DNA from: Staphylococcus phage SpaA1
Length of the DNA: 42,784 nt
Sequence record: HE614281.1
Direction: 5' to 3' (one strand)
This document shows positions 2,878-32,499 of this stretch, one piece after another. The notes below the pieces were generated by a model. That model had not been told where the DNA came from. It did no database searches and saw only the letters and a list, made by a program, of their open reading frames with translations. The stretch's first letter is position 1; each line of letters begins with the position of its first letter. Both the position numbers and the translations under genes were made by a program.

Positions 2878-4311
2878 ATGTTTGAACACTACATTCCGTT
2901 ACTGGATGAAGAAAATGGTGAACCCACACCTAAGCTACTCAAAAAGATTATTGATGAGTTTGAACCACTAAAACAACGCATGATAAATAGGTATGAGCGT
3001 TACAAAGCAAGTGAGAAAGGCGTACCTATATTCACACGTGAGTTTAAAGGTGATGGGAATAAGGACAAGGTTAACAACAAGCTAAACAATGATTTCTTTT
3101 CTGAAATTATTGATACAAAAATAGGATATATGTTCGGATTGCCTATTTCATACAGTCTAGATCATGAAGACGAGGAAGTATTGAAGCGTATCCAAGACTT
3201 TTTAAAATCGAATCATACCGAAGATGCTGACGCGGAAACAGGAAAGTTTGCTTCTATTTGCGGTTATGGAGCGAGACTGCTTTACCATGACAAAGAAGGA
3301 ATTGAAAAGGTTATGAATATCAAACCTTATGAAGCAATATTTCTTACTAATTCAAGCATTGCAGAGCCTAAATACGCTATCCGCTGCTATCCAATCAAAG
3401 TAATCGATGGTGATGATTTCAAAGACGGATACAAAGTGGAATTTTACAATGATACGCAAATCATTGAGTACACTGGTGAAGATTTAGATAAGTTGAAAGA
3501 AACAAATCGAATTACTAATTTATACAAAGGTGTACCACTTATCGGATTTCCTAACAATGAAGAATTGCAGGGGGATGTCGATAAAGCTATTTCTCTTATT
3601 GAGGGATATGATAGGGCTATCTCTGATGTAAATAGTGAGATTGAGCAGTTCCGTTTGGCTTATATGATTTTCAAAGGTGTGGATATAGATGATGATACCA
3701 TTGAGAAATTAAAACAAACTGGAGCTCTGGATGTAGGCGAGAATGGCGAGGCTAATTTTTTAACTAAGGACCTTAATGACAACATTTTAGAACATCATCT
3801 AGACAGGTTAGAAAAGAATATATGCCGATTCACGAAGCATGTGAACCTTTCTGATGAATCGTTTGGTGGTAACCTTACTGGTGTTGCTATTCGTTATAAG
3901 TTGCTATCGTTAGAAACAAAATCCGGTACATTAGAAATGAAATTCACTAAGTCATTGCGACAACAATTTAAGTTACTATTCGACGCTTGGAATTTACGCT
4001 CAAATAAAGAAGAATTAGATTACCTTTGCATGACGTTCCAATTTACACGTAACCTTCCAGCAAACTTATCTGATGAAGCTGATGTTCAGTCTAAATTACA
4101 GGGTTTAATAAGCGAAGAAACACGATTATCTATGTTATCTGTTATTCCTGATCCAAAGGCAGAATTACAAAAGATGAAGGAAGAAGAGGTTGATTCTATC
4201 GATTTAGACACTGTACATAAAGGCGGTGAAAACGATGGAATGGGACAAGAAGCAGAAACACCTCCAAAAGATAGAGGACGAGCTGGAAAAGGCGATTCTC
4301 TACCTGTATAA
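2878..4311 (+). CDS. Portal protein
   Basis: 477 aa directly after terL; size and composition typical of SPP1-type portal; disordered acidic C-terminus. Confidence 0.85.
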   Translation: MFEHYIPLLDEENGEPTPKLLKKIIDEFEPLKQRMINRYERYKASEKGVPIFTREFKGDGNKDKVNNKLNNDFFSEIIDTKIGYMFGLPISYSLDHEDEEVLKRIQDFLKSNHTEDADAETGKFASICGYGARLLYHDKEGIEKVMNIKPYEAIFLTNSSIAEPKYAIRCYPIKVIDGDDFKDGYKVEFYNDTQIIEYTGEDLDKLKETNRITNLYKGVPLIGFPNNEELQGDVDKAISLIEGYDRAISDVNSEIEQFRLAYMIFKGVDIDDDTIEKLKQTGALDVGENGEANFLTKDLNDNILEHHLDRLEKNICRFTKHVNLSDESFGGNLTGVAIRYKLLSLETKSGTLEMKFTKSLRQQFKLLFDAWNLRSNKEELDYLCMTFQFTRNLPANLSDEADVQSKLQGLISEETRLSMLSVIPDPKAELQKMKEEEVDSIDLDTVHKGGENDGMGQEAETPPKDRGRAGKGDSLPV

Positions 4312-22865: not shown

Positions 22866-24032
22866 ATGGGAATCATAAAAGAATGGCTTCATAAGAGGTC
22901 TTTAAAGCACCAGATTATTGAGGTGTTCCAAAAGGCAGGTTTATATACGGAACATCAAACACGTGGAGGGAAAATCCCAATTTATCCAAAGGTTCATGCT
23001 GTTTTTTCTTCAAACGAAAGCGTGAAATATGTATTTACTATCCCCAACGGATTAGATCCAAAGACAATTGAAAAGAAATGGTTTTGCTTTCAACAAATAT
23101 TTGGACGGAATGTAGCAATTGAGGGAGATATTAAAAAGTTTGTGCTCAATGTATTTCATTCTGATTGTGGTTTGAAACAATACAACTACAGTTATAAGCA
23201 ATGGCAGCCATTCATAAAAGAATGCCGTCTTCCTATTGTAGTAGGGCGTGACCAGTTTGGAAACATGCTTGTTTATGATATGGTAAACCCCAATACACCC
23301 CATTTACTCATTGCAGGAGAAACAGGTAGCGGAAAAAGTAGCATGGTACGTGTTGTACTATCTACACTCATTCAATGCGTGTCTCCTGATAAATTATATT
23401 TGTACCTAGGCGACTTGAAAAATTCTGAATTTCATTTCTTGCGTAGAGTAAAACATGTGAAAGAAGTGTGCATGGAAGAAATTGAAATGAAAGTCATGCT
23501 TCATAAGGTTTGGAATGAAATCAGGGAACGCAGAAAGCTCATGGAAGAATATGAAGTGGATCACATTGATGAGTACAATAAATTAAATCCTGATAAACAG
23601 AAACCCTATATTCTGTTAGCTATTGATGAAGTAGCGATGCTACAAGATGAAAAAGAATGTATGACGACAATAGAAAAAATATCGGCAGTTGGTCGGGCAC
23701 TAGGCGTATTCCTCATGCTATCTATGCAAAGACCAGATGCAAAGGTGTTAGATGGTAAGTTAAAGCTAAATATGACGGTTAGAATGGGCTTTAAATGCGA
23801 TAACACAATTAATAGTAATATTATGGGTACATCTGGATCAGAACACTTAGAACAATCTGGCCAAATGATTTTAAAGTTAAATGGATTAAAGAAAGTGCAA
23901 GCTCCTTATTTAGAACTTAATAAAGCAAAGCAAATAGTTGAACCTTACCGTTTACTCAAAGAAGATATAACGTTTCAGAATTCGCTACAACAAGAACTTC
24001 CTTTGTTTGGAGTGTTGGAACATGAAGAGTAG
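22866..24032 (+). CDS. FtsK/SpoIIIE-family DNA translocase-like ATPase (TraB/Tra-like single-protein DNA transfer or segregation ATPase)
   Basis: 388 aa; Walker A LLIAGETGSGKSS; Walker B LLAIDEVAML; spacing and size typical of FtsK-like Tra proteins of small Gram-positive integrative elements and plasmids. Confidence 0.8.
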   Translation: MGIIKEWLHKRSLKHQIIEVFQKAGLYTEHQTRGGKIPIYPKVHAVFSSNESVKYVFTIPNGLDPKTIEKKWFCFQQIFGRNVAIEGDIKKFVLNVFHSDCGLKQYNYSYKQWQPFIKECRLPIVVGRDQFGNMLVYDMVNPNTPHLLIAGETGSGKSSMVRVVLSTLIQCVSPDKLYLYLGDLKNSEFHFLRRVKHVKEVCMEEIEMKVMLHKVWNEIRERRKLMEEYEVDHIDEYNKLNPDKQKPYILLAIDEVAMLQDEKECMTTIEKISAVGRALGVFLMLSMQRPDAKVLDGKLKLNMTVRMGFKCDNTINSNIMGTSGSEHLEQSGQMILKLNGLKKVQAPYLELNKAKQIVEPYRLLKEDITFQNSLQQELPLFGVLEHEE

Positions 24033-24630
24033 AGATAAAGCGATTATAAAAGACTTATGCCGCTTTAGATGCCTATCACGAGATGATATTATCGATTTGC
24101 ATTTCCAAGGACTCAAGAAAGCTGTGACCAGTTGCAATACGGTTATGAAACGATTAAGTCGAGATGGGAGTGTGGAAGTAAATGTGTTACAGAAACCATA
24201 TATCTACTTTCCACAACCGAGTCCGATTCGAAAAACAAGTCAAAAGATTCCGCACTTCCTTGCTATTGTGAATGTATATAAGCAACTTCTTCAGTACGAA
24301 AAGCCTAAATTGTTTAAAGTCGAGCCGAAGTATGGTAAAGCATATATGGAGCCAGACATATTTGCAATTTGGCGACAATCTCCATTTTTCATAGAAGTGC
24401 AGAATTCGGTATACAGTAAGAAAGTAATGCAAGAGAAATTAAACCGATATGAATTTTACTTTCATAGTTTGGAATGGCAACAAGAACCATGGCAACCCAA
24501 GAAATCGAAATACTTCCCTTCTCTTCTGGTAATTACCGATAGCCAGTATGACATCTCCTCTTCAAATTTTCGCATATTTCAAGCTAAATCCATTCACGAT
24601 TTCATGAATCAAATGGTTGTTAAGACATAA
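24007..24630 (+). CDS. Replication-relaxation-like family protein (putative winged-helix DNA-binding protein)
   Basis: 207 aa overlapping the FtsK-like gene by 26 nt; positively charged N-terminal region; gene pairing typical of FtsK-like plus replication-relaxation partners; assignment from composition and context only. Confidence 0.35.
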   Translation: MECWNMKSRDKAIIKDLCRFRCLSRDDIIDLHFQGLKKAVTSCNTVMKRLSRDGSVEVNVLQKPYIYFPQPSPIRKTSQKIPHFLAIVNVYKQLLQYEKPKLFKVEPKYGKAYMEPDIFAIWRQSPFFIEVQNSVYSKKVMQEKLNRYEFYFHSLEWQQEPWQPKKSKYFPSLLVITDSQYDISSSNFRIFQAKSIHDFMNQMVVKT

Positions 24631-24634
24631 CAAG

Positions 24635-25516
24635 TTAACCATCAATAAATTCTTTGAAAAAAGCTAGTCCATTATATTTATTTGCCTTACGATTTGCAAG
24701 GTTATGTATCTCTCTAAAGCTATCAATGTAGTTATAGACGATTTTTTTGAACGTTCGAGTAAAGTATCCAATAGGATTTTTCATCGATTTTCCATTATGC
24801 TCGTACTTATGTGTTTTAAAGTACAAAACAGAAGAAGCATTTGCAAGAAGGGTGTGAAATACATCTGTATCTGCTAATAAATTAAATTGTTTTGCAGCCT
24901 TCTTTGCAATGTTTCTGGCATTTTTGAAAGATTCATTAATCACATTGGGTGAAAAAGCAGTTTGTAATTCCATACGCATAGATTGTGGCACACGATAATC
25001 GATGAAGTCTAAATCATGTTGAAAAGATTGCGAAACTTCTTCTTTACGTTTATTTATATCTTTTATCTTTTGTTTTAAGGTTTTTGTAGTTGTTTTCTTG
25101 GTGTGACAAATTTCCACAGTTTTAGTAGGGGCTTCTGTGACAAGTTGTTCTTCCGTAATAATTGGCTGAATAATGATTATATTACTCGTTTGTCTCATGT
25201 CACTCTTACGTTTCATTTCCAGTTGCTTAATAATGCCAAGTGATTCTAAGTAGTGGCATGCACGGATAACAGTTCTACGGCTAATATCAAGATCTTCGGC
25301 AATGTGTTTTTTCGTTCTGAAAGATACACCAAGAAATTTAGAAGAATAATTGTGTAATTTATTTAATACAGCTAATTGATTTTTATTTAATTGGTCAGCA
25401 AATTGCTTTTTATATGCACGTACAGTGTCATTTAATTCCTTGAGAGTTTGAAAAGATACTAAGTTTTCGTATGTTTCTGTACTAGCAAGAATAGTAATTG
25501 CTTGTTTCTTTTTCAT
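24635..25516 (-). CDS. HTH-containing protein, putative plasmid-type replication initiator (Rep-like)
   Basis: 293 aa; HTH KHIAEDLDISRRTVIRACHYLESLGII; K-rich linker; adjacent to integrase and FtsK-like gene as in Rep-Tra-Int modules. Confidence 0.35.
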   Translation of the reverse strand: MKKKQAITILASTETYENLVSFQTLKELNDTVRAYKKQFADQLNKNQLAVLNKLHNYSSKFLGVSFRTKKHIAEDLDISRRTVIRACHYLESLGIIKQLEMKRKSDMRQTSNIIIIQPIITEEQLVTEAPTKTVEICHTKKTTTKTLKQKIKDINKRKEEVSQSFQHDLDFIDYRVPQSMRMELQTAFSPNVINESFKNARNIAKKAAKQFNLLADTDVFHTLLANASSVLYFKTHKYEHNGKSMKNPIGYFTRTFKKIVYNYIDSFREIHNLANRKANKYNGLAFFKEFIDG

Positions 25517-25889: not shown

Positions 25890-26990
25890 TCAACTCTTTA
25901 AAGGGCGTAGGTCACGAATTGGTAACGAAAATGATAAATCTTGTTCCATAAATGCAACCACTTCTGCTTGTTTTGACGGATATAAATGACTATATGTATT
26001 TAACGTCGTTGACACATCCGAATGTCCTAGGCGCTGGGCTACCACAAGTGGACTGACACCTCTATTTATTAAATAAGATGCATGGGAATGTCGAAATTCA
26101 TGAAGTAGAATTTTTGGTATTCCAGAAGCAACAACATATTTGGCAAAACGTTTATGAAGGGTAGCTGTCGCTATACTTGTGTAAAATTCACCAAATACAA
26201 TATAATCATTTTTTATCGGTGCTCCTAATGTAGCATGTTCTTTTAATGTTTTCAATAAGTCTATGACAAGAGACGGTAGCATAATAATACGATTTGATGC
26301 TTTGGTTTTGGGTTTTGTAACTTGTCTGTTATAGTTGGTTTTATTAATATTAATTGATTTTTCTTCAAAGTTAATATCTTCCCATGTTAATGCTAGCAAT
26401 TCGCCAGTTCTTGCCCCGCTATAATAAAGAGTCGTAAAAAAGGCTTGATACAGTAAATCATCTACTACATGAATGAATTGTTTAAACTCATCAAACTCCC
26501 AAAAGTTTAATCGTTTATTCGATTCTTTTTCAAAGTTGCCAGCAATTTTTGCTGGATTACTTGTGAGACCAAAAAACTTTATTGCGAAATTAAAAATTGA
26601 GGACAGTACGGTATGAATCTTTTTCAAATAAACAGCTGAATACTTATGAATAATTTCGTTTTGGTAGATCATGATATGCTTAGCAGTTATGTTGTTAATT
26701 TTTGATTTCCCGAATTTTTTTAGTAAATGATTTTCAAGGATGGCTTTAATTGTGTTAATTGAAGACTGTTTTCTTCTCTGGCAATACCAATCAAAATAGC
26801 TATCAGCAACTTGAGCAAAAGTTAAACTTGAAGTTGTTTCTTTTTCCACTAACATTTTGGCTTCCGCTTCACGAGCTTCTTTTTTTGTTTTAAATCCACG
26901 ACGTTTTACTTGTTTTTGAGTGCCATCAAACTGACGGACTCTGACAACGAAGAAATATGTTCCGCGTTCTTTATCTTTGTAGACCACCAT
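25890..26990 (-). CDS. int: Tyrosine integrase (phage integrase family with N-terminal arm-type DNA-binding domain)
   Basis: 366 aa; N-terminal arm-binding-like domain; catalytic region with R, HEFRHSHASYL (His-x-x-Arg), and Tyr in LNTYSHLY. Confidence 0.9.
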   Translation of the reverse strand: MVVYKDKERGTYFFVVRVRQFDGTQKQVKRRGFKTKKEAREAEAKMLVEKETTSSLTFAQVADSYFDWYCQRRKQSSINTIKAILENHLLKKFGKSKINNITAKHIMIYQNEIIHKYSAVYLKKIHTVLSSIFNFAIKFFGLTSNPAKIAGNFEKESNKRLNFWEFDEFKQFIHVVDDLLYQAFFTTLYYSGARTGELLALTWEDINFEEKSININKTNYNRQVTKPKTKASNRIIMLPSLVIDLLKTLKEHATLGAPIKNDYIVFGEFYTSIATATLHKRFAKYVVASGIPKILLHEFRHSHASYLINRGVSPLVVAQRLGHSDVSTTLNTYSHLYPSKQAEVVAFMEQDLSFSLPIRDLRPLKS

Positions 26991-27507
26991 AGAAAATCCT
27001 CCTGCATATATAAAGATTGATAATTCGATTTATTGAGTAGATTATAACTTGTTTGTTACCAAAAGAAAAGATGTCCTAATCAGAACATCTTAAGATTGAT
27101 AAAAAAATAAATTGGCTGGTTAAACATATATTAGAGTGGCTGGTTCTAAATATAACCATATATGTTAGAAAGTTACGAATTCAGAGTTTTGAAAATGATT
27201 GTTGGTTTTTCAGTTAAACAATTGTTGAGAAAGTTTCCTGAATGCTGATTCACATATGTATACGTGTTATAATAATTGTGTATATGTTTCACGATAAACT
27301 CAGTAATACCAAGGGTTTATCAAACTGAAAAATAATAATTGAACATAAATAAAGACCCATAGAAGCGTGTGTAAGAGGTGCGAGCTGAAAATTCCTCTTA
27401 CACCGTTTACCTAACCATCGCTTAGGAAACAACTGCCCCGTATGAGTCAATCTTAGTATATCATGTTTCCAAAATATTACCATTGAGAAAGTTAGGATGG
27501 AGGATTT

Positions 27508-28746
27508 ATGTTTGGAGAAGGGGGAGTTTTTATGTGTTTTCGTAAAAAAATATGTGATTTAATCGAAGACAGGGACGATCTAAACTTTACAGATGTCGCA
27601 AATAAAATGGGTGTTTCAAAACAATATTTACAAAAGTTTAAAAATCAAGGTAACATCAGTTTTCCTAATTTACTGAGATTGGCTTCAGTTGTAAGTACAA
27701 AAAGTGAAGAGCTTTCAATGTTTTTACATGAGTGGTGCGTAGAATTAGATAGTACAGAAGCCATTAAGCATAGTTTTGAATATGCAGCATTGGTTCGTGA
27801 TAAGGTTTTATTGAATAAATTACTAGAAAAACACAAAAATGAATCTGGTACAGTTGCAGAGTATGTAAATGTTTATGGAGTATTATATAAGTATATGAAT
27901 GATGAAATTTCAGGTACTGAAATTATTAAGTGCTTAAAGATGTATAACCGTCCTTCTGATAACATGTTAAATATTTTGATTGATATTATGAAATGTTACG
28001 ATTATTATCATCAAAAGAAATTCAATGCAATGTTTGATTTGGTTGACGAAATTGAGAAAGAGTTAATCTCAATTGATGAGAGTGATCGTAAAATGTTTCT
28101 TAAGGAATGTTATATGTATCGACTTGCAGAAGTGTTTTCCCCGCTTAATCTACAAAGAAAAAATTTAGAGTCTTCAAGATATTATGCCAAGTTATTAATA
28201 GAAGCAAATCTATGTACAAAAACTGTTTCAGATGCTTTATATTTATTGGGGATGTCATATTTAATTGATGATGAGGAACTTTGTTTAGAGTATTTACAGG
28301 AAAGTTATAATTTATCCAAAAAAGTAAATGACGCTTCAATTGAAGCAGCAGCGCGTTATAATTTAGATGTTGTCAAAATGTATTTAAACCTTAGTTTGCC
28401 ATTAGATTCAGATGTACGTTTAATCAATTTTCAAAATAATCCCACAGATGAAGATTCACGAGATGGATTAAAAGAAATTTTAAAGTCAAATGGAGAAAGA
28501 GATTTTTTAAGACTTTTTCTAGCAATCACTGATACAGAGCCTAACAGAATATACGAATGTTTTAAAGAATTTCTTGTTCAATCGAACTACCTCTTTGTAA
28601 GTTTAGTAGCTAAAGAAATAAATAGAAGAGGGGATAATTCCTTGCTAGTACAGCAAATGATTGATTATAATATGGATAAAGGAGTGGATGAAAATGAAAA
28701 AATTTACTTTAGTACTTTGCGCCTTTTCAATGTTAGCTGTGAGTAG
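27508..28746 (+). CDS. RNPP-family HTH plus TPR-like receptor, AimR-like (arbitrium-type) transcriptional regulator
   Basis: 412 aa; N-terminal HTH FTDVANKMGVSKQYLQKFKNQGNISFPNLLRLASVV; remainder helical repeat-rich; immediately followed by overlapping signal-peptide mini-ORF; alternative start ATG 27532 after GAAGGGGGAG. Confidence 0.6.
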   Translation: MFGEGGVFMCFRKKICDLIEDRDDLNFTDVANKMGVSKQYLQKFKNQGNISFPNLLRLASVVSTKSEELSMFLHEWCVELDSTEAIKHSFEYAALVRDKVLLNKLLEKHKNESGTVAEYVNVYGVLYKYMNDEISGTEIIKCLKMYNRPSDNMLNILIDIMKCYDYYHQKKFNAMFDLVDEIEKELISIDESDRKMFLKECYMYRLAEVFSPLNLQRKNLESSRYYAKLLIEANLCTKTVSDALYLLGMSYLIDDEELCLEYLQESYNLSKKVNDASIEAAARYNLDVVKMYLNLSLPLDSDVRLINFQNNPTDEDSRDGLKEILKSNGERDFLRLFLAITDTEPNRIYECFKEFLVQSNYLFVSLVAKEINRRGDNSLLVQQMIDYNMDKGVDENEKIYFSTLRLFNVSCE

Positions 28747-28810
28747 TGTTTCGTATAATATTATAAAAAAAGGTTCATTTCAATCTGTAGAAATTAAACC
28801 AGGTGGCTAA
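28694..28810 (+). CDS. Secreted pro-peptide, AimP-like (MKKFTLVLCAFSMLAVSSVSYNIIKKGSFQSVEIKPGG)
   Basis: 38-aa ORF in +1 frame overlapping the last 53 nt of the receptor gene; RBS GGAG 9 nt upstream; N-terminal Sec signal-like segment; followed directly by a terminator. Confidence 0.5.
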   Translation: MKKFTLVLCAFSMLAVSSVSYNIIKKGSFQSVEIKPGG

Positions 28811-28840
28811 AAAGCGCAGCATATGCTGTGCTTTTTTATT
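28811..28840 (+). terminator. Rho-independent terminator after the AimP-like ORF
   Basis: AGCGCAGCATATGCTGTGCT hairpin followed by TTTTTTATTT. Confidence 0.65.
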
Positions 28841-29019
28841 TGGGGCAGCTCTATTAATGAGACTGAGTTTTATCGGTAAACTAAAAAAAGAAATAAAGAA
28901 TTTGTTTACTCTTCTATTTTTCCTTTCAATATATGATAAAATTTTCGACAAATAGAGCCTAAACTGTTGGAAAAGAGTAAATAAAAATGGGATTAAACGG
29001 ACTTATAGGGGGAATAGAA

Positions 29020-29118
29020 ATGACGAAAGAAGAGATCGTAGAATTATTTTTGAACACAGTAGATGAAGCTAAACCGGAATTAATTGAAGAATATATAGAA
29101 GAAAGTTTTAGAATTTAA
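29020..29118 (+). CDS. Small acidic ORF (32 aa, MTKEEIVELFLNTVDEAKPELIEEYIEESFRI) in the position analogous to aimX
   Basis: Strong RBS TAGGGGGAATAGAAATG; ends at a bidirectional terminator; it could be part of a non-coding transcript. Confidence 0.3.
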   Translation: MTKEEIVELFLNTVDEAKPELIEEYIEESFRI

Positions 29119-29121
29119 AAG

Positions 29122-29156
29122 ATAGCCCGTCTCCAATATGAGGGGCTATTTTTTTT
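29122..29156. terminator. Bidirectional rho-independent terminator shared by the small ORF (+) and the cI-like repressor gene (-)
   Basis: ATAGCCCGTCTC-CAATAT-GAGGGGCTAT hairpin flanked by AAAA upstream and TTTTTTTT downstream. Confidence 0.65.
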
Positions 29157-29502
29157 CGTTATTATGATATTCTTCTAATGTTTTGGTTATCGCCAACATC
29201 TGTTGAAGTACAATTTCCTGTTTTTCCTCAGGGAGCGTATCTAATCGTTCCATAATTTCCTTAAATTTTGTGTGTTTCTTTATATCTAATTCGTTACCAC
29301 GTCCTAGTAGGAAATCAGTTGTTACTTCTAATGTATCAGATAATTTTGCAATGGTATCTGGTGAAGGAAAGCGTTCTTCGGATTCATAATAACCAATTAC
29401 ACGAGACGAAGCTCCTACCTTTTTCCCTAGTATTTCTTGCGTCCAGTTACGTTGTTTTCTAAGTTTTTTTATTCTAGCCCCTATGCCCATCAATTTAATC
29501 AC
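29146..29502 (-). CDS. cI-like phage repressor (XRE-family HTH with C-terminal dimerisation region)
   Basis: 118 aa; HTH IKKLRKQRNWTQEILGKKVGASSRVIGYYES; divergent from cro-like gene across an operator-rich region. Confidence 0.8.
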   Translation of the reverse strand: MIKLMGIGARIKKLRKQRNWTQEILGKKVGASSRVIGYYESEERFPSPDTIAKLSDTLEVTTDFLLGRGNELDIKKHTKFKEIMERLDTLPEEKQEIVLQQMLAITKTLEEYHNNEKK

Positions 29503-29529
29503 CTCATAAAGTTATTCATTTGAACAACT

Positions 29530-29625
29530 TGTTCTCTTTGAGGTTAATCATAGCACATTATGTTCGAAAAGTCATTGACAATGTATAAATTGTTCGATAT
29601 GATTGTAATCGAACAAAACGTTCTT
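29530..29625. promoter_or_regulatory. Lysogeny switch region with a sigma-A-type rightward promoter and operator palindromes built on the half-site TTGTTCG/CGAACAA
   Basis: -35 TTGACA 29575-29580, 17-bp spacer, -10 TATGAT 29598-29603. Palindromes GAACAACTTGTTC (~29534), TTGTTCGAT-9nt-ATCGAACAA (~29591-29617, overlapping the -10) and GAACAAAACGTTC (~29611). Confidence 0.55.
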
Positions 29626-29638
29626 ACAGGAGGTAGAC

Positions 29639-29875
29639 ATGAAACAATCAATTATTTATCATAAAATCGCAGAACATTGTGGAGTTACTGAAAGGTATAT
29701 AAGAATGCTAGATAAAAAAGAGCGTAGCCCATCCATGGAAGTTGCTAAAAAAATAGCTGACTTTTTAGATGAATCAATAGAGGAGATTTTTTTTAACCCC
29801 AATACGAACGAAACGTTCGTTTTTGAACGGTTTTACCCAAAGTTAATTGAAGGAAACGCTTCAATTAGGCGTTGA
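29639..29875 (+). CDS. Cro-like HTH regulator
   Basis: 78 aa; HTH IAEHCGVTERYIRMLDKKERSPSMEVAKKIADFL; RBS CAGGAGGTAGACATG; divergent from the cI-like gene. Confidence 0.6.
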   Translation: MKQSIIYHKIAEHCGVTERYIRMLDKKERSPSMEVAKKIADFLDESIEEIFFNPNTNETFVFERFYPKLIEGNASIRR

Positions 29876-29907
29876 TGTAAATATAACCTATATAGGGAGT
29901 GGTATCC

Positions 29908-30096
29908 ATGCACAAAAACTTATTTATTGCTCGAAAAGAGCAACGCATGACGCAAGAAGCAACTGCAAATTTAATCAATATAGCCCCAAAAACATATTAT
30001 TTAAAAGAGCACGGTAAAAGTGATTTCACTCTAAAAGAAGCTCAGAAACTAGCAAAATACTTCAAAACAACAGTGGATGAGTTGTTTGCAAAATAA
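29908..30096 (+). CDS. Second small XRE-family HTH protein
   Basis: 62 aa from ATG 29908 (RBS TAGGGAGTGG); HTH RMTQEATANLINIAPKTYYLKEHGKS. Confidence 0.6.
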   Translation: MHKNLFIARKEQRMTQEATANLINIAPKTYYLKEHGKSDFTLKEAQKLAKYFKTTVDELFAK

Positions 30097-30321: not shown

Positions 30322-31101
30322 ATGGATGGATTAACAGTAGCAAACGAACTGGTATTTGAAAGTAATGGTGAGGTAGTAACAGATAGTTTGACAATTGCTG
30401 AGATGTTTGGAAAGGAGCACAAAAATATAAAACGAGATATCTTAGAAACAATTTCGAAATTAGCAAGTCTACAACATAATGCTGAAGTGGATGAACTAGG
30501 TATTAATTTTAATACGCTCAAATTTGAGCCCATTGAATATCGAGATAACCGCAATCGAATACAAGAAAAATACATTTTAAACTTCGATGCGTTTATGCTC
30601 GTAACTATGAGTTATACAACGCAAAAAGCAATGTTACTAAAGGTAAAATACATCAATGAGTTTAACCGTATGAAAAACTATATTCAGAGCCAACAACATG
30701 TACCTACAGATCCCATGAGTATTTTAAAGCTTACTTTTGAAGCGCTAGAAGGGCAAAAGCAAGAACTCCAGCACATCAAATCAGATGTCAAAGACTTACG
30801 AGAAAATGCGCCGTTATTTGCTGTAGAATGCGATGAAATATCAAATGCAGTCAAGCGTCATGGCGTTGCGCTATTAGGTGGTAAACAGTCTAATGCGTAC
30901 CAACATGCGGGGATTAGAGGTAAGGTCTACCGTGATATCTATAATCAGTTATATCGTGAATTTGGAGTAACAAGCCATAAAGCAATTAAACGTGGTCATT
31001 TGGCACTCGCAACAAAGATTGTTGGAGCGTATACGTTACCTATTGTGCTGAGTGAGAAAATTAATATAGTAAACTCTCAAATTAAGTTTTCTGAGATGTA
31101 A
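30322..31101 (+). CDS. Phage regulatory protein Rha / antirepressor
   Basis: N-terminus LVFESNGEVVTDSLTIAEMFGKEHKNIKRDI matches the Phage_pRha signature; 259 aa. Confidence 0.75.
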   Translation: MDGLTVANELVFESNGEVVTDSLTIAEMFGKEHKNIKRDILETISKLASLQHNAEVDELGINFNTLKFEPIEYRDNRNRIQEKYILNFDAFMLVTMSYTTQKAMLLKVKYINEFNRMKNYIQSQQHVPTDPMSILKLTFEALEGQKQELQHIKSDVKDLRENAPLFAVECDEISNAVKRHGVALLGGKQSNAYQHAGIRGKVYRDIYNQLYREFGVTSHKAIKRGHLALATKIVGAYTLPIVLSEKINIVNSQIKFSEM

Positions 31102-31851: not shown

Positions 31852-32499
31852 ATGACAGCAGAAGAATTATTTGAAGAAAAGAAATATTTAGTGATTGCAG
31901 CAGTTAAGCAACAATTTGGAAGTATCGCAAGAGCTGGACAGATTGCAGAAATAAACAATATGGATTTGGATGATTTAATACAAGTTGGCCATCTGTATTT
32001 ATGGGAGCATTGTATGAATTATGATCCAGAGAGAGTAGATACATTCAATGCATACGTGATGAAAGGCATGAAATGGGCAATGAGTGATGAGCTTCACTTG
32101 AAAGGGACGCCTTTTAAGATAAGCAGACGAGTTGGTCATGAGGAACGGAATAAAATGAATATTCATTCGATTGATTTGCATCGAGATGGAGAAACGGTAA
32201 AAGAATTTTATGCAGTGTCTCCTATCGATGTGGAACAAGAAGCGATATTATCCATTGAATTTGAAGAAATGACGAGTGTACTTGAAGAAAAAGAAAAGTC
32301 AATTATTCTGCACGTCGGTGAAGGGTATACCACAAGAGAAATTGCTGTGAAATTAGAGATGAAGAAATCTACTGTTCAAACAAGAAAGACACGGGCATTT
32401 TTAAAGATGAATCCAGATTATAAGCCAATAAAACAAAAATCCTTTTTCTTGGGGAAAAGAATGATAAAGAGAAACCACCAGTTGGGGCTGGTGATCTAA
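31852..32499 (+). CDS. Sigma-70 family RNA polymerase sigma factor (phage-encoded)
   Basis: 215 aa. The region-2-like stretch is DLIQVGHLYLWEHCMNYDPERVDTFNAYVMKGMKWAMSDEL. The region-4 HTH is GEGYTTREIAVKLEMKKSTVQTRKTRAFLKM. Confidence 0.7.
   Translation: MTAEELFEEKKYLVIAAVKQQFGSIARAGQIAEINNMDLDDLIQVGHLYLWEHCMNYDPERVDTFNAYVMKGMKWAMSDELHLKGTPFKISRRVGHEERNKMNIHSIDLHRDGETVKEFYAVSPIDVEQEAILSIEFEEMTSVLEEKEKSIILHVGEGYTTREIAVKLEMKKSTVQTRKTRAFLKMNPDYKPIKQKSFFLGKRMIKRNHQLGLVI

Follow-up and report, generated by a model that had tools for sequence, protein, structure and literature searches.

Whether the region between the integrase gene and the cI/cro switch of Staphylococcus phage SpaA1 (HE614281.1) encodes a phage communication system, and of what kind, is the question raised by nt 27508–29156 of this 42,784-nt sequence, the whole of which is referred to below as the window. 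A preliminary description, made from the letters alone, had proposed an arbitrium locus, i.e. a lysis-lysogeny receptor of the AimR type together with a pro-peptide of the AimP type that supplies its signal. The comparisons reported here support that proposal. The locus is, with high confidence, an arbitrium system that belongs to the Wbeta-like (xxKPGG) branch and resides in a temperate Bacillus thuringiensis phage of the BtCS33 type (genus Camtrevirus), and every defining feature of arbitrium that can be tested computationally was found in it.

The receptor gene aimR

Gene aimR (nt 27508–28746, + strand) starts at an ATG preceded by GGAGG and encodes a 412-aa protein. As had been described before, this protein has an N-terminal helix-turn-helix (HTH) domain (approximately residues 19–62, nt 27562–27693) and a body of helical repeats resembling tetratricopeptide repeats (TPR); the open reading frame (ORF) and a model of the fold both bear this out, the match to the HTH_3 family of Pfam being weak (expectation value, E, of 8e-4). 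The family models are specific. NCBIfam equivalog NF038310 (AimR family lysis-lysogeny pheromone receptor) matches with 282 bits (cutoff 70), Pfam PF22871 (AimR) matches with 86.6 bits (cutoff 26.7) and is covered from profile position 4 to 308 of 309, and phrog_1728 matches at E 6.6e-104. All database homologues of the protein carry PF22871, and several are labelled 'AimR family lysis-lysogeny pheromone receptor' by NCBI. The receptor retains all of the family-invariant residues, and its HTH recognition region is strongly conserved across the receptors compared.

Structural evidence points the same way. When the sequences of the PDB were searched, each of the six matches with E < 1e-3 was an AimR protein, and the remaining three were weak TPR matches to GPSM2/Pins (E 0.009–0.13). 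An AlphaFold2 model, for which 22 homologues were used, is all-helical, with a predicted local distance difference test value (pLDDT) of 86.9 and a predicted template modelling score (pTM) of 0.85. Compared with the PDB by Foldseek, this model finds AimR structures at ranks 1–16 without interruption (E 4e-9 to 4e-6, template modelling (TM) scores of 0.64–0.79), and matches to Rap, PlcR and PrgX begin only at E 1e-3, with TM scores of at most 0.56. No match to Rap, NprR or PlcR was obtained with the window protein in Pfam, NCBIfam or PDB sequence searches. The preliminary description had named this profile and structure comparison, with a better fit to Rap or NprR as the outcome that would tell against it; AimR proved to be the best match in every case. 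The 412-aa protein is an AimR arbitrium receptor, and not a host-type regulator of the RRNPP class.

Two closely related records differ from the window within this gene. A difference of one A from BtCS33, in an A-run at nt 27543, gives the annotated BtCS33 AimR a shifted N-terminus, and two compensating homopolymer indels relative to phi4I1 (nt 27774 and 27813, 39 nt apart) split AimR into two annotated ORFs in that record. The probable explanation of these indels is sequencing error in the two records, the window copy of aimR being the intact one.

The pro-peptide gene aimP and its predicted signal

Gene aimP (nt 28694–28810, + strand) encodes a pre-pro-peptide of 38 aa, MKKFTLVLCAFSMLAVSSVSYNIIKKGSFQSVEIKPGG, and overlaps the 3' end of aimR by 53 nt in a different frame. 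The ribosome-binding site (RBS) and signal-like N-terminus previously ascribed to this ORF were both recovered. A GGAG motif lies 9 nt upstream of the ATG and, by simple rules for signal peptides, the N-terminus has a net charge of +2, a hydrophobic core of 11 residues (mean Kyte-Doolittle hydropathy 2.7) and small residues at -3/-1 after positions 17, 18 and 20. It appears, by this signal-like composition, to have the layout of a Sec signal peptide. An alternative start at nt 28688 was rejected, as it is just 3 nt from the GGAG.

The codons for the predicted mature signal, EIKPGG, are nt 28790–28807 (+ strand), as read from the sequence, and the last seven residues of the window AimP are those of the AimP-like ORF of phage Wbeta (MKK...VEIKPGG). 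In two secondary sources, through which, together with the Aframian 2021 preprint, Stokar-Avihail 2019 is cited here, the C-terminal hexapeptides of Wbeta-group AimP proteins are given as EIKPGG or TIKPGG and equated with the mature pheromone (PMC8878798), the Wbeta peptide minus its leading E is reported to be inactive (PMC8878798), the activity of EIKPGG is stated to have been shown at 1 uM for phage Wbeta (PMC11945551, a 2025 review), and TIKPGG is described for the J5a group (PMC8878798; PMC11945551). Because the Wbeta peptide without the leading E is reported inactive, the mature peptide encoded by the window is most likely the full hexapeptide EIKPGG. The earlier suggestion that about six C-terminal residues, including IKPGG, form the signal is supported by this identity with a peptide reported as active. 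The accompanying idea, that an IKPGG-type motif might define a new specificity class of its own, must be abandoned on the strength of the same sources, in which EIKPGG had already been assigned to Wbeta and TIKPGG to the J5a group.

A possible internal promoter, the sigma-A-like TTGCTA-18-TATAAT, was found by consensus scan within the 3' end of aimR, a short distance upstream of the aimP RBS (nt 28642–28671, + strand; 10 of 12 consensus matches), in a region where promoter-like matches are not more numerous than expected from shuffled sequence. It could be an independent promoter for aimP, like that described for phi3T, and is to be taken as a lead only. Its predicted leader begins just ~3 nt before the Shine-Dalgarno sequence of aimP.

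Conservation and co-variation of peptide and receptor

Related loci were compared in a set of 48, made up of annotated phages, six loci from genomes and 37 from IMG/VR. In all 48, a small ORF at or overlapping the 3' end of aimR begins with MKK, contains a hydrophobic stretch and has a C-terminus of characteristic sequence, and the C-terminal hexapeptides are coherent by clade on a neighbour-joining tree of AimR. The signal EIKPGG is found in the window clade (AimR at least 78% identical to that of the window), where (V/I)EIKPGG is invariant and the pro-region variable, and again in the Wbeta clade (~48% identical), which is the sister of the window clade on this tree. The J5a/z1a clade and locus L029 (~45–50%) carry TIKPGG, L028 and L010 (37–45%) carry GIKPGG, and L030–L032 and L034 (42–45%) carry GTKPGG or GSKPGG. 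DIKPGG is seen in MY192 and L035–L037 (38–42%) and DVRPGG in L038–L043, L048 and L049 (~37%), while the peptides of the Peribacillus/Neobacillus-type clade (35–41%) end in KVGG (EKVGG, DKVGG or NKVGG). Conservation of the mini-ORF, and co-variation of its C-terminus with the receptor, had been named in advance as a check on the arbitrium assignment, and both are evident in this set.

Every EIKPGG receptor can be told from every TIKPGG receptor at ten columns of the alignment. Although confounded by phylogeny, these columns may serve as leads for residues that determine specificity. Residue Q216 of the window receptor, for example, is replaced by H in the TIKPGG clade and by R in the DIKPGG and DVRPGG clades.

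The AimP homologues of the Peribacillus/Neobacillus-type clade show a peculiarity of their own, in that each pro-peptide contains two copies of the putative mature peptide, e.g. ...SEKVGGIVTYSEKVGG and ...SDKVGGFILFSDKVGG. Such two-copy homologues were seen in L011 (nt 4139–4276), L012 (nt 4166–4303), L044, L046 and L047.

Terminator, candidate operator and promoter downstream of aimP

The terminator predicted earlier to follow aimP is present. It is an intrinsic terminator (nt 28809–28841, + strand) in which an inverted repeat forms a hairpin with a 14-bp stem (nt 28809–28836) ahead of a T-run, with a computed RNA folding energy of -20.9 kcal/mol (z score -3.3), and an equivalent hairpin occupies the same place in Wbeta and z1a.

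Beyond it lies a candidate AimR operator, GTAAAC-N22-GTTTAC (nt 28876–28909, + strand), with an AT-rich spacer. When the intergenic regions of six window-clade loci are aligned, this block is kept while its flanks diverge. A single copy of the motif is present in the 42.8-kb window, where 0.05 would be expected by chance, and its exact form is found in 13 loci, including some with receptors just 35–41% identical to that of the window. In other clades the boxes at this offset vary, with the spacer remaining 22 nt throughout; examples are GTAAAC/ATTTAC in Wbeta and GTCAAC/ATGTAC in z1a; those of L028 (GTACAC/GTGTAC) and L029 (GTATCT/AGATAC) preserve the palindrome perfectly. Conservation of the operator is not universal, since a search of the DIKPGG, DVRPGG and GT/SKPGG clades for a GTAAAC-type operator gave partial or different inverted repeats only. 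The footprinted operators of the SPbeta and phi3T AimR proteins likewise consist of two 6-bp inverted boxes downstream of aimP, separated by an AT-rich spacer of 25 bp (PMC6458997).

The right box of the candidate operator is followed after 27 nt by an extended -10 element, TGaTAAAAT (nt 28934–28942, + strand), assigned to a candidate promoter of the aimX type, the -35 of which is poor. This element is conserved in the window clade, and a gap of 27–28 nt between right box and -10 recurs in Wbeta (TATAAT) and z1a (TGtTATTAT). All three clades share the order aimP, terminator, operator, -10, RBS, small ORF, bidirectional terminator and convergent cI.

An ORF of 32 aa that runs across the operator (nt 28857–28955) was also considered as a gene and was rejected, as it is broken by indels and substitutions in close relatives.

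The small ORF in the aimX position

The preliminary description had placed a tiny ORF, ending at a bidirectional terminator, in the position equivalent to aimX. Its position and its end stand, and its start requires correction: the conserved start codon is the ATG at nt 29020 and not that at nt 28987, the stretch between them (nt 28987–29019) being deleted in close relatives. As corrected, the ORF (nt 29020–29118, + strand) encodes 32 aa, MTKEEIVELFLNTVDEAKPELIEEYIEESFRI, and is preceded by an RBS, AGGGGGA, at a spacing of 6 nt. The longer form that has been annotated (43 aa, nt 28987–29118) matches phrog_20324, a family of unknown function, at E 1.5e-32. Homologues occur in the EIKPGG (including Wbeta), TIKPGG (including J5a) and GT/SKPGG clades, and share the motif KE-I[LV]--F[LF]...[YFL]IE--F-[IV]. 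In close pairs the ratio of nonsynonymous to synonymous substitution rates (dN/dS) is 0.12–0.14, a noisy estimate given that there are only ~32 codons. Comparison of the small protein with the PDB gave no meaningful similarity to solved structures, and more distant clades, such as that of MY192, have an unrelated small ORF in its place. Taken together, the comparative data suggest that nt 29020–29118 is probably a real protein gene.

The bidirectional terminator (nt 29117–29154, both strands) is common to the small-ORF transcript and the convergent cI gene, the stop codon of which it overlaps. Computed RNA folding energies are -20.0 kcal/mol (z score -4.9) on the + strand and -13.5 kcal/mol (z score -3.1) on the - strand.

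A natural exchange of cassettes

Comparison with L030 and L034, which have receptors 42–45% identical to that of the window and carry the peptide GTKPGG, shows 93% nucleotide identity to the window from nt ~29005 rightwards, across the RBS of the small ORF, the small ORF itself, cI, cro and beyond. The GSKPGG loci L031 and L032 have the same breakpoint, with ~85% identity. From ~27675 to 29004, the resemblance of all four loci to the window is patchy at most. It follows that aimP, the terminator, the operator, the promoter and aimR, chiefly in its TPR part, are exchanged together, as a unit that can be plugged onto the same immunity module of small ORF, cI and cro. Such a swap fits with the small-ORF transcript being the regulated output of the system.

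The recombination breakpoint on the right is sharp (window nt ~29005, corresponding to nt 3932 of L030 and nt 3330 of L034), and the left side falls within nt 27071–27483. A 72-nt block next to the integrase gene (nt 27000–27071) is also common to the window and the phages with the GTKPGG cassette.

Proposed mechanism and alternative explanations

By extension from SPbeta, phi3T and Wbeta, AimP would be secreted, cleaved to EIKPGG and taken back up through the Opp permease of the host. At low peptide levels, apo-AimR dimers would bind GTAAAC-N22-GTTTAC and turn on the downstream transcript, either by activating the extended -10 promoter with its weak -35 or by overriding the aimP terminator, as in phi3T. 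This transcript would favour lysis, by convergent or antisense interference with cI, by way of the 32-aa protein, or both. At high peptide levels, EIKPGG would hold AimR in a form unable to span both half-sites, so that output would go down, cI would win and lysogeny would be favoured. Several points weigh against this account. Its functional evidence (secretion, processing, peptide binding and the effect on lysogeny) is borrowed from Wbeta, the AimR of which is 48% identical. With a strong terminator standing between the small ORF and cI, the room for true antisense overlap would be limited, and the case for selection on the small ORF has to be read from its ~32 codons only. Lastly, the gap between the aimP terminator and the operator depends on the clade, being ~35 nt here and ~8 nt in Wbeta.

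Could the locus be something other than a working arbitrium system? One alternative is quorum sensing of the host RRNPP type (Rap-Phr, NprR-NprX or PlcR-PapR), carried on a prophage and directed at host traits instead of the phage decision. AimR does fall within the wider RRNPP fold class, with Rap, PlcR and PrgX among the weak Foldseek matches, and Rap-Phr systems are known to be carried by phages. Such an origin is nevertheless scarcely credible here, and is effectively refuted by the family-model and Foldseek results: models of Rap, NprR and PlcR failed to match in Pfam or NCBIfam, and AimR structures are ahead of those of Rap, PlcR and PrgX by at least three orders of magnitude in E, with the clearly separated TM scores given above. 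The location between int and cI/cro, and an operator with the long spacer of the AimR type, also speak against it. The other alternative, that the system is a decaying remnant which no longer controls the decision in this phage lineage, would draw on the BtCS33 and phi4I1 records, in which homopolymer indels in aimR shift or split the annotation and aimP is unannotated. It is very unlikely, as both ORFs are intact in the window, AimR has kept every family-invariant residue, and the operator, terminators and small ORF are conserved; the indels lie in A/T runs, and the phi4I1 pair compensates within 39 nt, as is typical of sequencing error.

Given an active arbitrium system, there are also competing views of how AimR acts and of what the output does. 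AimR might be an antiterminator, as has been demonstrated in phi3T and SPbeta (PMC10769878), such that a transcript from upstream of aimP stops at nt 28809–28841 unless apo-AimR is bound at nt 28876–28909. The order aimP, terminator, AimR site and small ORF is that described for phi3T and SPbeta (PMC10769878), and the post-aimP terminator is strong, and conserved in Wbeta and z1a. Set against this are the extended -10/TATAAT elements at a fixed 27–28 nt from the right box in three clades, as an activator-dependent promoter predicts, and the variation of the terminator-operator distance from ~8 to ~35 nt between clades; in phi3T this distance is critical for antitermination, neither -8 nor +69 bp being tolerated (PMC10769878). 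Antitermination is a possibility to which we give clearly less than even weight, and the -10, conserved and set at a fixed spacing, speaks for promoter activation as the putative mode of AimR action. As for the output, aimX in non-SPbeta clades has been reported to be antisense to a cI-like repressor and to lower the cI-like transcript (PMC11945551 and another secondary source), and cis-antisense action of this kind is what the literature ascribes to such clades. The effector might instead be the conserved 32-aa protein, with the repressor or a host factor as its target (cf. phi3T AimX on MazF), rather than a cI antisense RNA. In favour of a protein are the conservation of the ORF across three receptor clades, with a shared motif, a good RBS and low dN/dS in close pairs, its possession of a PHROG family of its own, the strong terminator that sets it apart from cI, and the precedent of phi3T AimX, which turned out to be a peptide (PMC10769878). 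The lack of similarity to any solved structure, the weak selection statistics that follow from so short an ORF, and the unrelated ORF found in distant clades such as that of MY192 count against it. A protein in place of antisense RNA is put forward tentatively, with a probability not far short of even. Because a strong terminator separates the small ORF from cI and this ORF shows conservation at the protein level, a small-protein effector like phi3T AimX is a serious alternative, or addition, to antisense action within the arbitrium mechanism proposed above.

Phage context and neighbouring genes

Over nt 27300–29200 the identity of the window is 99.9% with Bacillus phages BtCS33, phi4I1 and BtiUFT6.51-F and 98% with phiCM3. 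These four phages belong to the genus Camtrevirus and are temperate siphoviruses that infect B. thuringiensis. The gene order agrees with the BtCS33 annotation: integrase, large "transcriptional regulator", small hypothetical ORF, cI-like, cro-like, second HTH, anti-repressor and sigma factor. The arbitrium locus is thus placed in the lysogeny module of a temperate phage, with the integrase on one side and cI/cro on the other, exactly where it had been said to lie. On the left is a tyrosine integrase (nt 25890–26990, - strand; Pfam Phage_integrase, SAM-like and Arm-DNA-binding domains; phrog_1). On the right, convergent with the arbitrium output, is a cI-like HTH repressor of 118 aa (nt 29146–29502, - strand; Pfam HTH_3 E 1.4e-10; BtCS33 gp28), followed by a divergent cro-like HTH regulator (nt 29639–29875, + strand; Pfam HTH_3 E 1.1e-6; BtCS33 gp29). 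The best NCBIfam match of the cI-like protein is an RstR-type repressor, at 71.5 bits and so under the cutoff of 80. Since the cI-like protein is without a peptidase domain, prophage induction probably proceeds via an anti-repressor and not by RecA-mediated cleavage.

Together with a second HTH gene (nt 29899–30096, + strand), the cI-like (- strand) and cro-like (+ strand) genes form a run of three small HTH regulators (nt 29146–30096), to the 3' side of which is an anti-repressor gene (nt 30322–31101). Further downstream of the switch is a phage-encoded RNA polymerase sigma factor gene (nt 31852–32499), which is annotated likewise in BtCS33. Between the lysis region and the integrase (nt 22866–25516) are an ORF of 388 aa (nt 22866–24032), a replication-initiator-like gene and an HTH DNA-binding gene. 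The 72-nt block mentioned above (nt 27000–27071) lies just upstream of the integrase gene, is 94–97% conserved even in phages in which the neighbouring sequence has diverged, and overlaps a terminator-like hairpin on the minus strand (nt 27091–27068); it could be part of the phage attachment site (attP) or of integrase regulation. An Rfam scan of nt 26900–29900 gave sub-threshold chance matches only, and no LexA box of the phi106 style was found in the locus, matches across the window being at chance level.

Novelty and significance

Neither the type of system nor its signal is new: arbitrium in B. cereus-group phages, the xxKPGG class and the peptide EIKPGG itself are already published. A search of the arbitrium literature on BtCS33, phiCM3, phi4I1 and Camtrevirus found no paper describing this particular locus. 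As the NCBI AimR model already names such receptors, the discovery value is small, and the absence of aimP from the BtCS33 and phi4I1 GenBank records is an annotation gap rather than a discovery. There is value for annotation, in that aimP can be added to both records and aimR, which is mis-started in BtCS33 and split in phi4I1, corrected. New here are the candidate operator at nt 28876–28909, the extended -10, the evidence for a conserved 32-aa gene and the cassette swap near nt 29005.

These results provide testable predictions for a less-studied branch of B. cereus-group phages, concerning an operator with its promoter, a small output protein, the swapping of cassettes and cross-talk. As regards the last, the signal EIKPGG is identical in spite of a receptor identity of 48%, and therefore BtCS33-type and Wbeta-type phages could eavesdrop on each other's lysogeny signals; if true, this cross-talk would join two phage genera that infect the B. 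cereus group. A stronger, joint proposal, which the literature consulted does not describe, is that the effector is a conserved protein of 32–43 aa (phrog_20324), and not merely cI antisense RNA, that it is expressed from an AimR-dependent promoter with an operator common to receptors as little as 35% identical, and that the BtCS33-type and Wbeta-type genera also eavesdrop via EIKPGG. Taken as a whole, this combination is unlikely to hold in every part.

Comparison with known systems

The closest known system is that of Wbeta (Wbetavirus). The hexapeptide EIKPGG is identical, aimP overlaps the 3' end of aimR in both, and both loci run from aimP through a terminator, a 6-N22-6 inverted repeat, a -10 and a homologous small ORF to a bidirectional terminator, with the convergent cI and then cro beyond it. 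The two differ in that the receptors are just 48% identical, the right operator box is ATTTAC in Wbeta and GTTTAC here, and the flanking gene is a serine recombinase in Wbeta, whereas here it is a tyrosine integrase on the opposite strand; the phage genus is also different (Camtrevirus here).

The systems of SPbeta and phi3T, with peptides GMPRGA and SAIRGA, share the receptor family and fold, although the solved AimR structures have just ~17–22% sequence identity to the window AimR. Also shared are a pro-peptide that carries its hexapeptide signal at the C-terminus; paired inverted boxes of 6 bp, set unusually far apart by AT-rich sequence and lying downstream of aimP; and, as output, a small ORF that is separated from aimP by a terminator. 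In SPbeta and phi3T, however, the spacer is 25 bp (22 bp here), the boxes are ATCACT or ATGTTC (GTAAAC here), and the peptides are of the xxxRGA rather than the xxKPGG class. Their output acts in trans, via MazF and YopR-type components (PMC10769878), while that of the window is convergent with a cI-like repressor. In this last respect the locus resembles that of phi106 (clade 1, B. subtilis group), where transcription of the aimX locus also runs towards a CI-like repressor encoded on the other strand, but phi106 has a LexA box in its aimX locus, and a peptide of class DPPVGM. Rap-Phr, NprR-NprX and PlcR-PapR are comparable in pairing a TPR receptor with an exported and re-imported oligopeptide, the product of a small neighbouring gene; they are set apart from the window system by the absence of family-model matches, by far weaker fold matches, and by a different genomic role and operator architecture.

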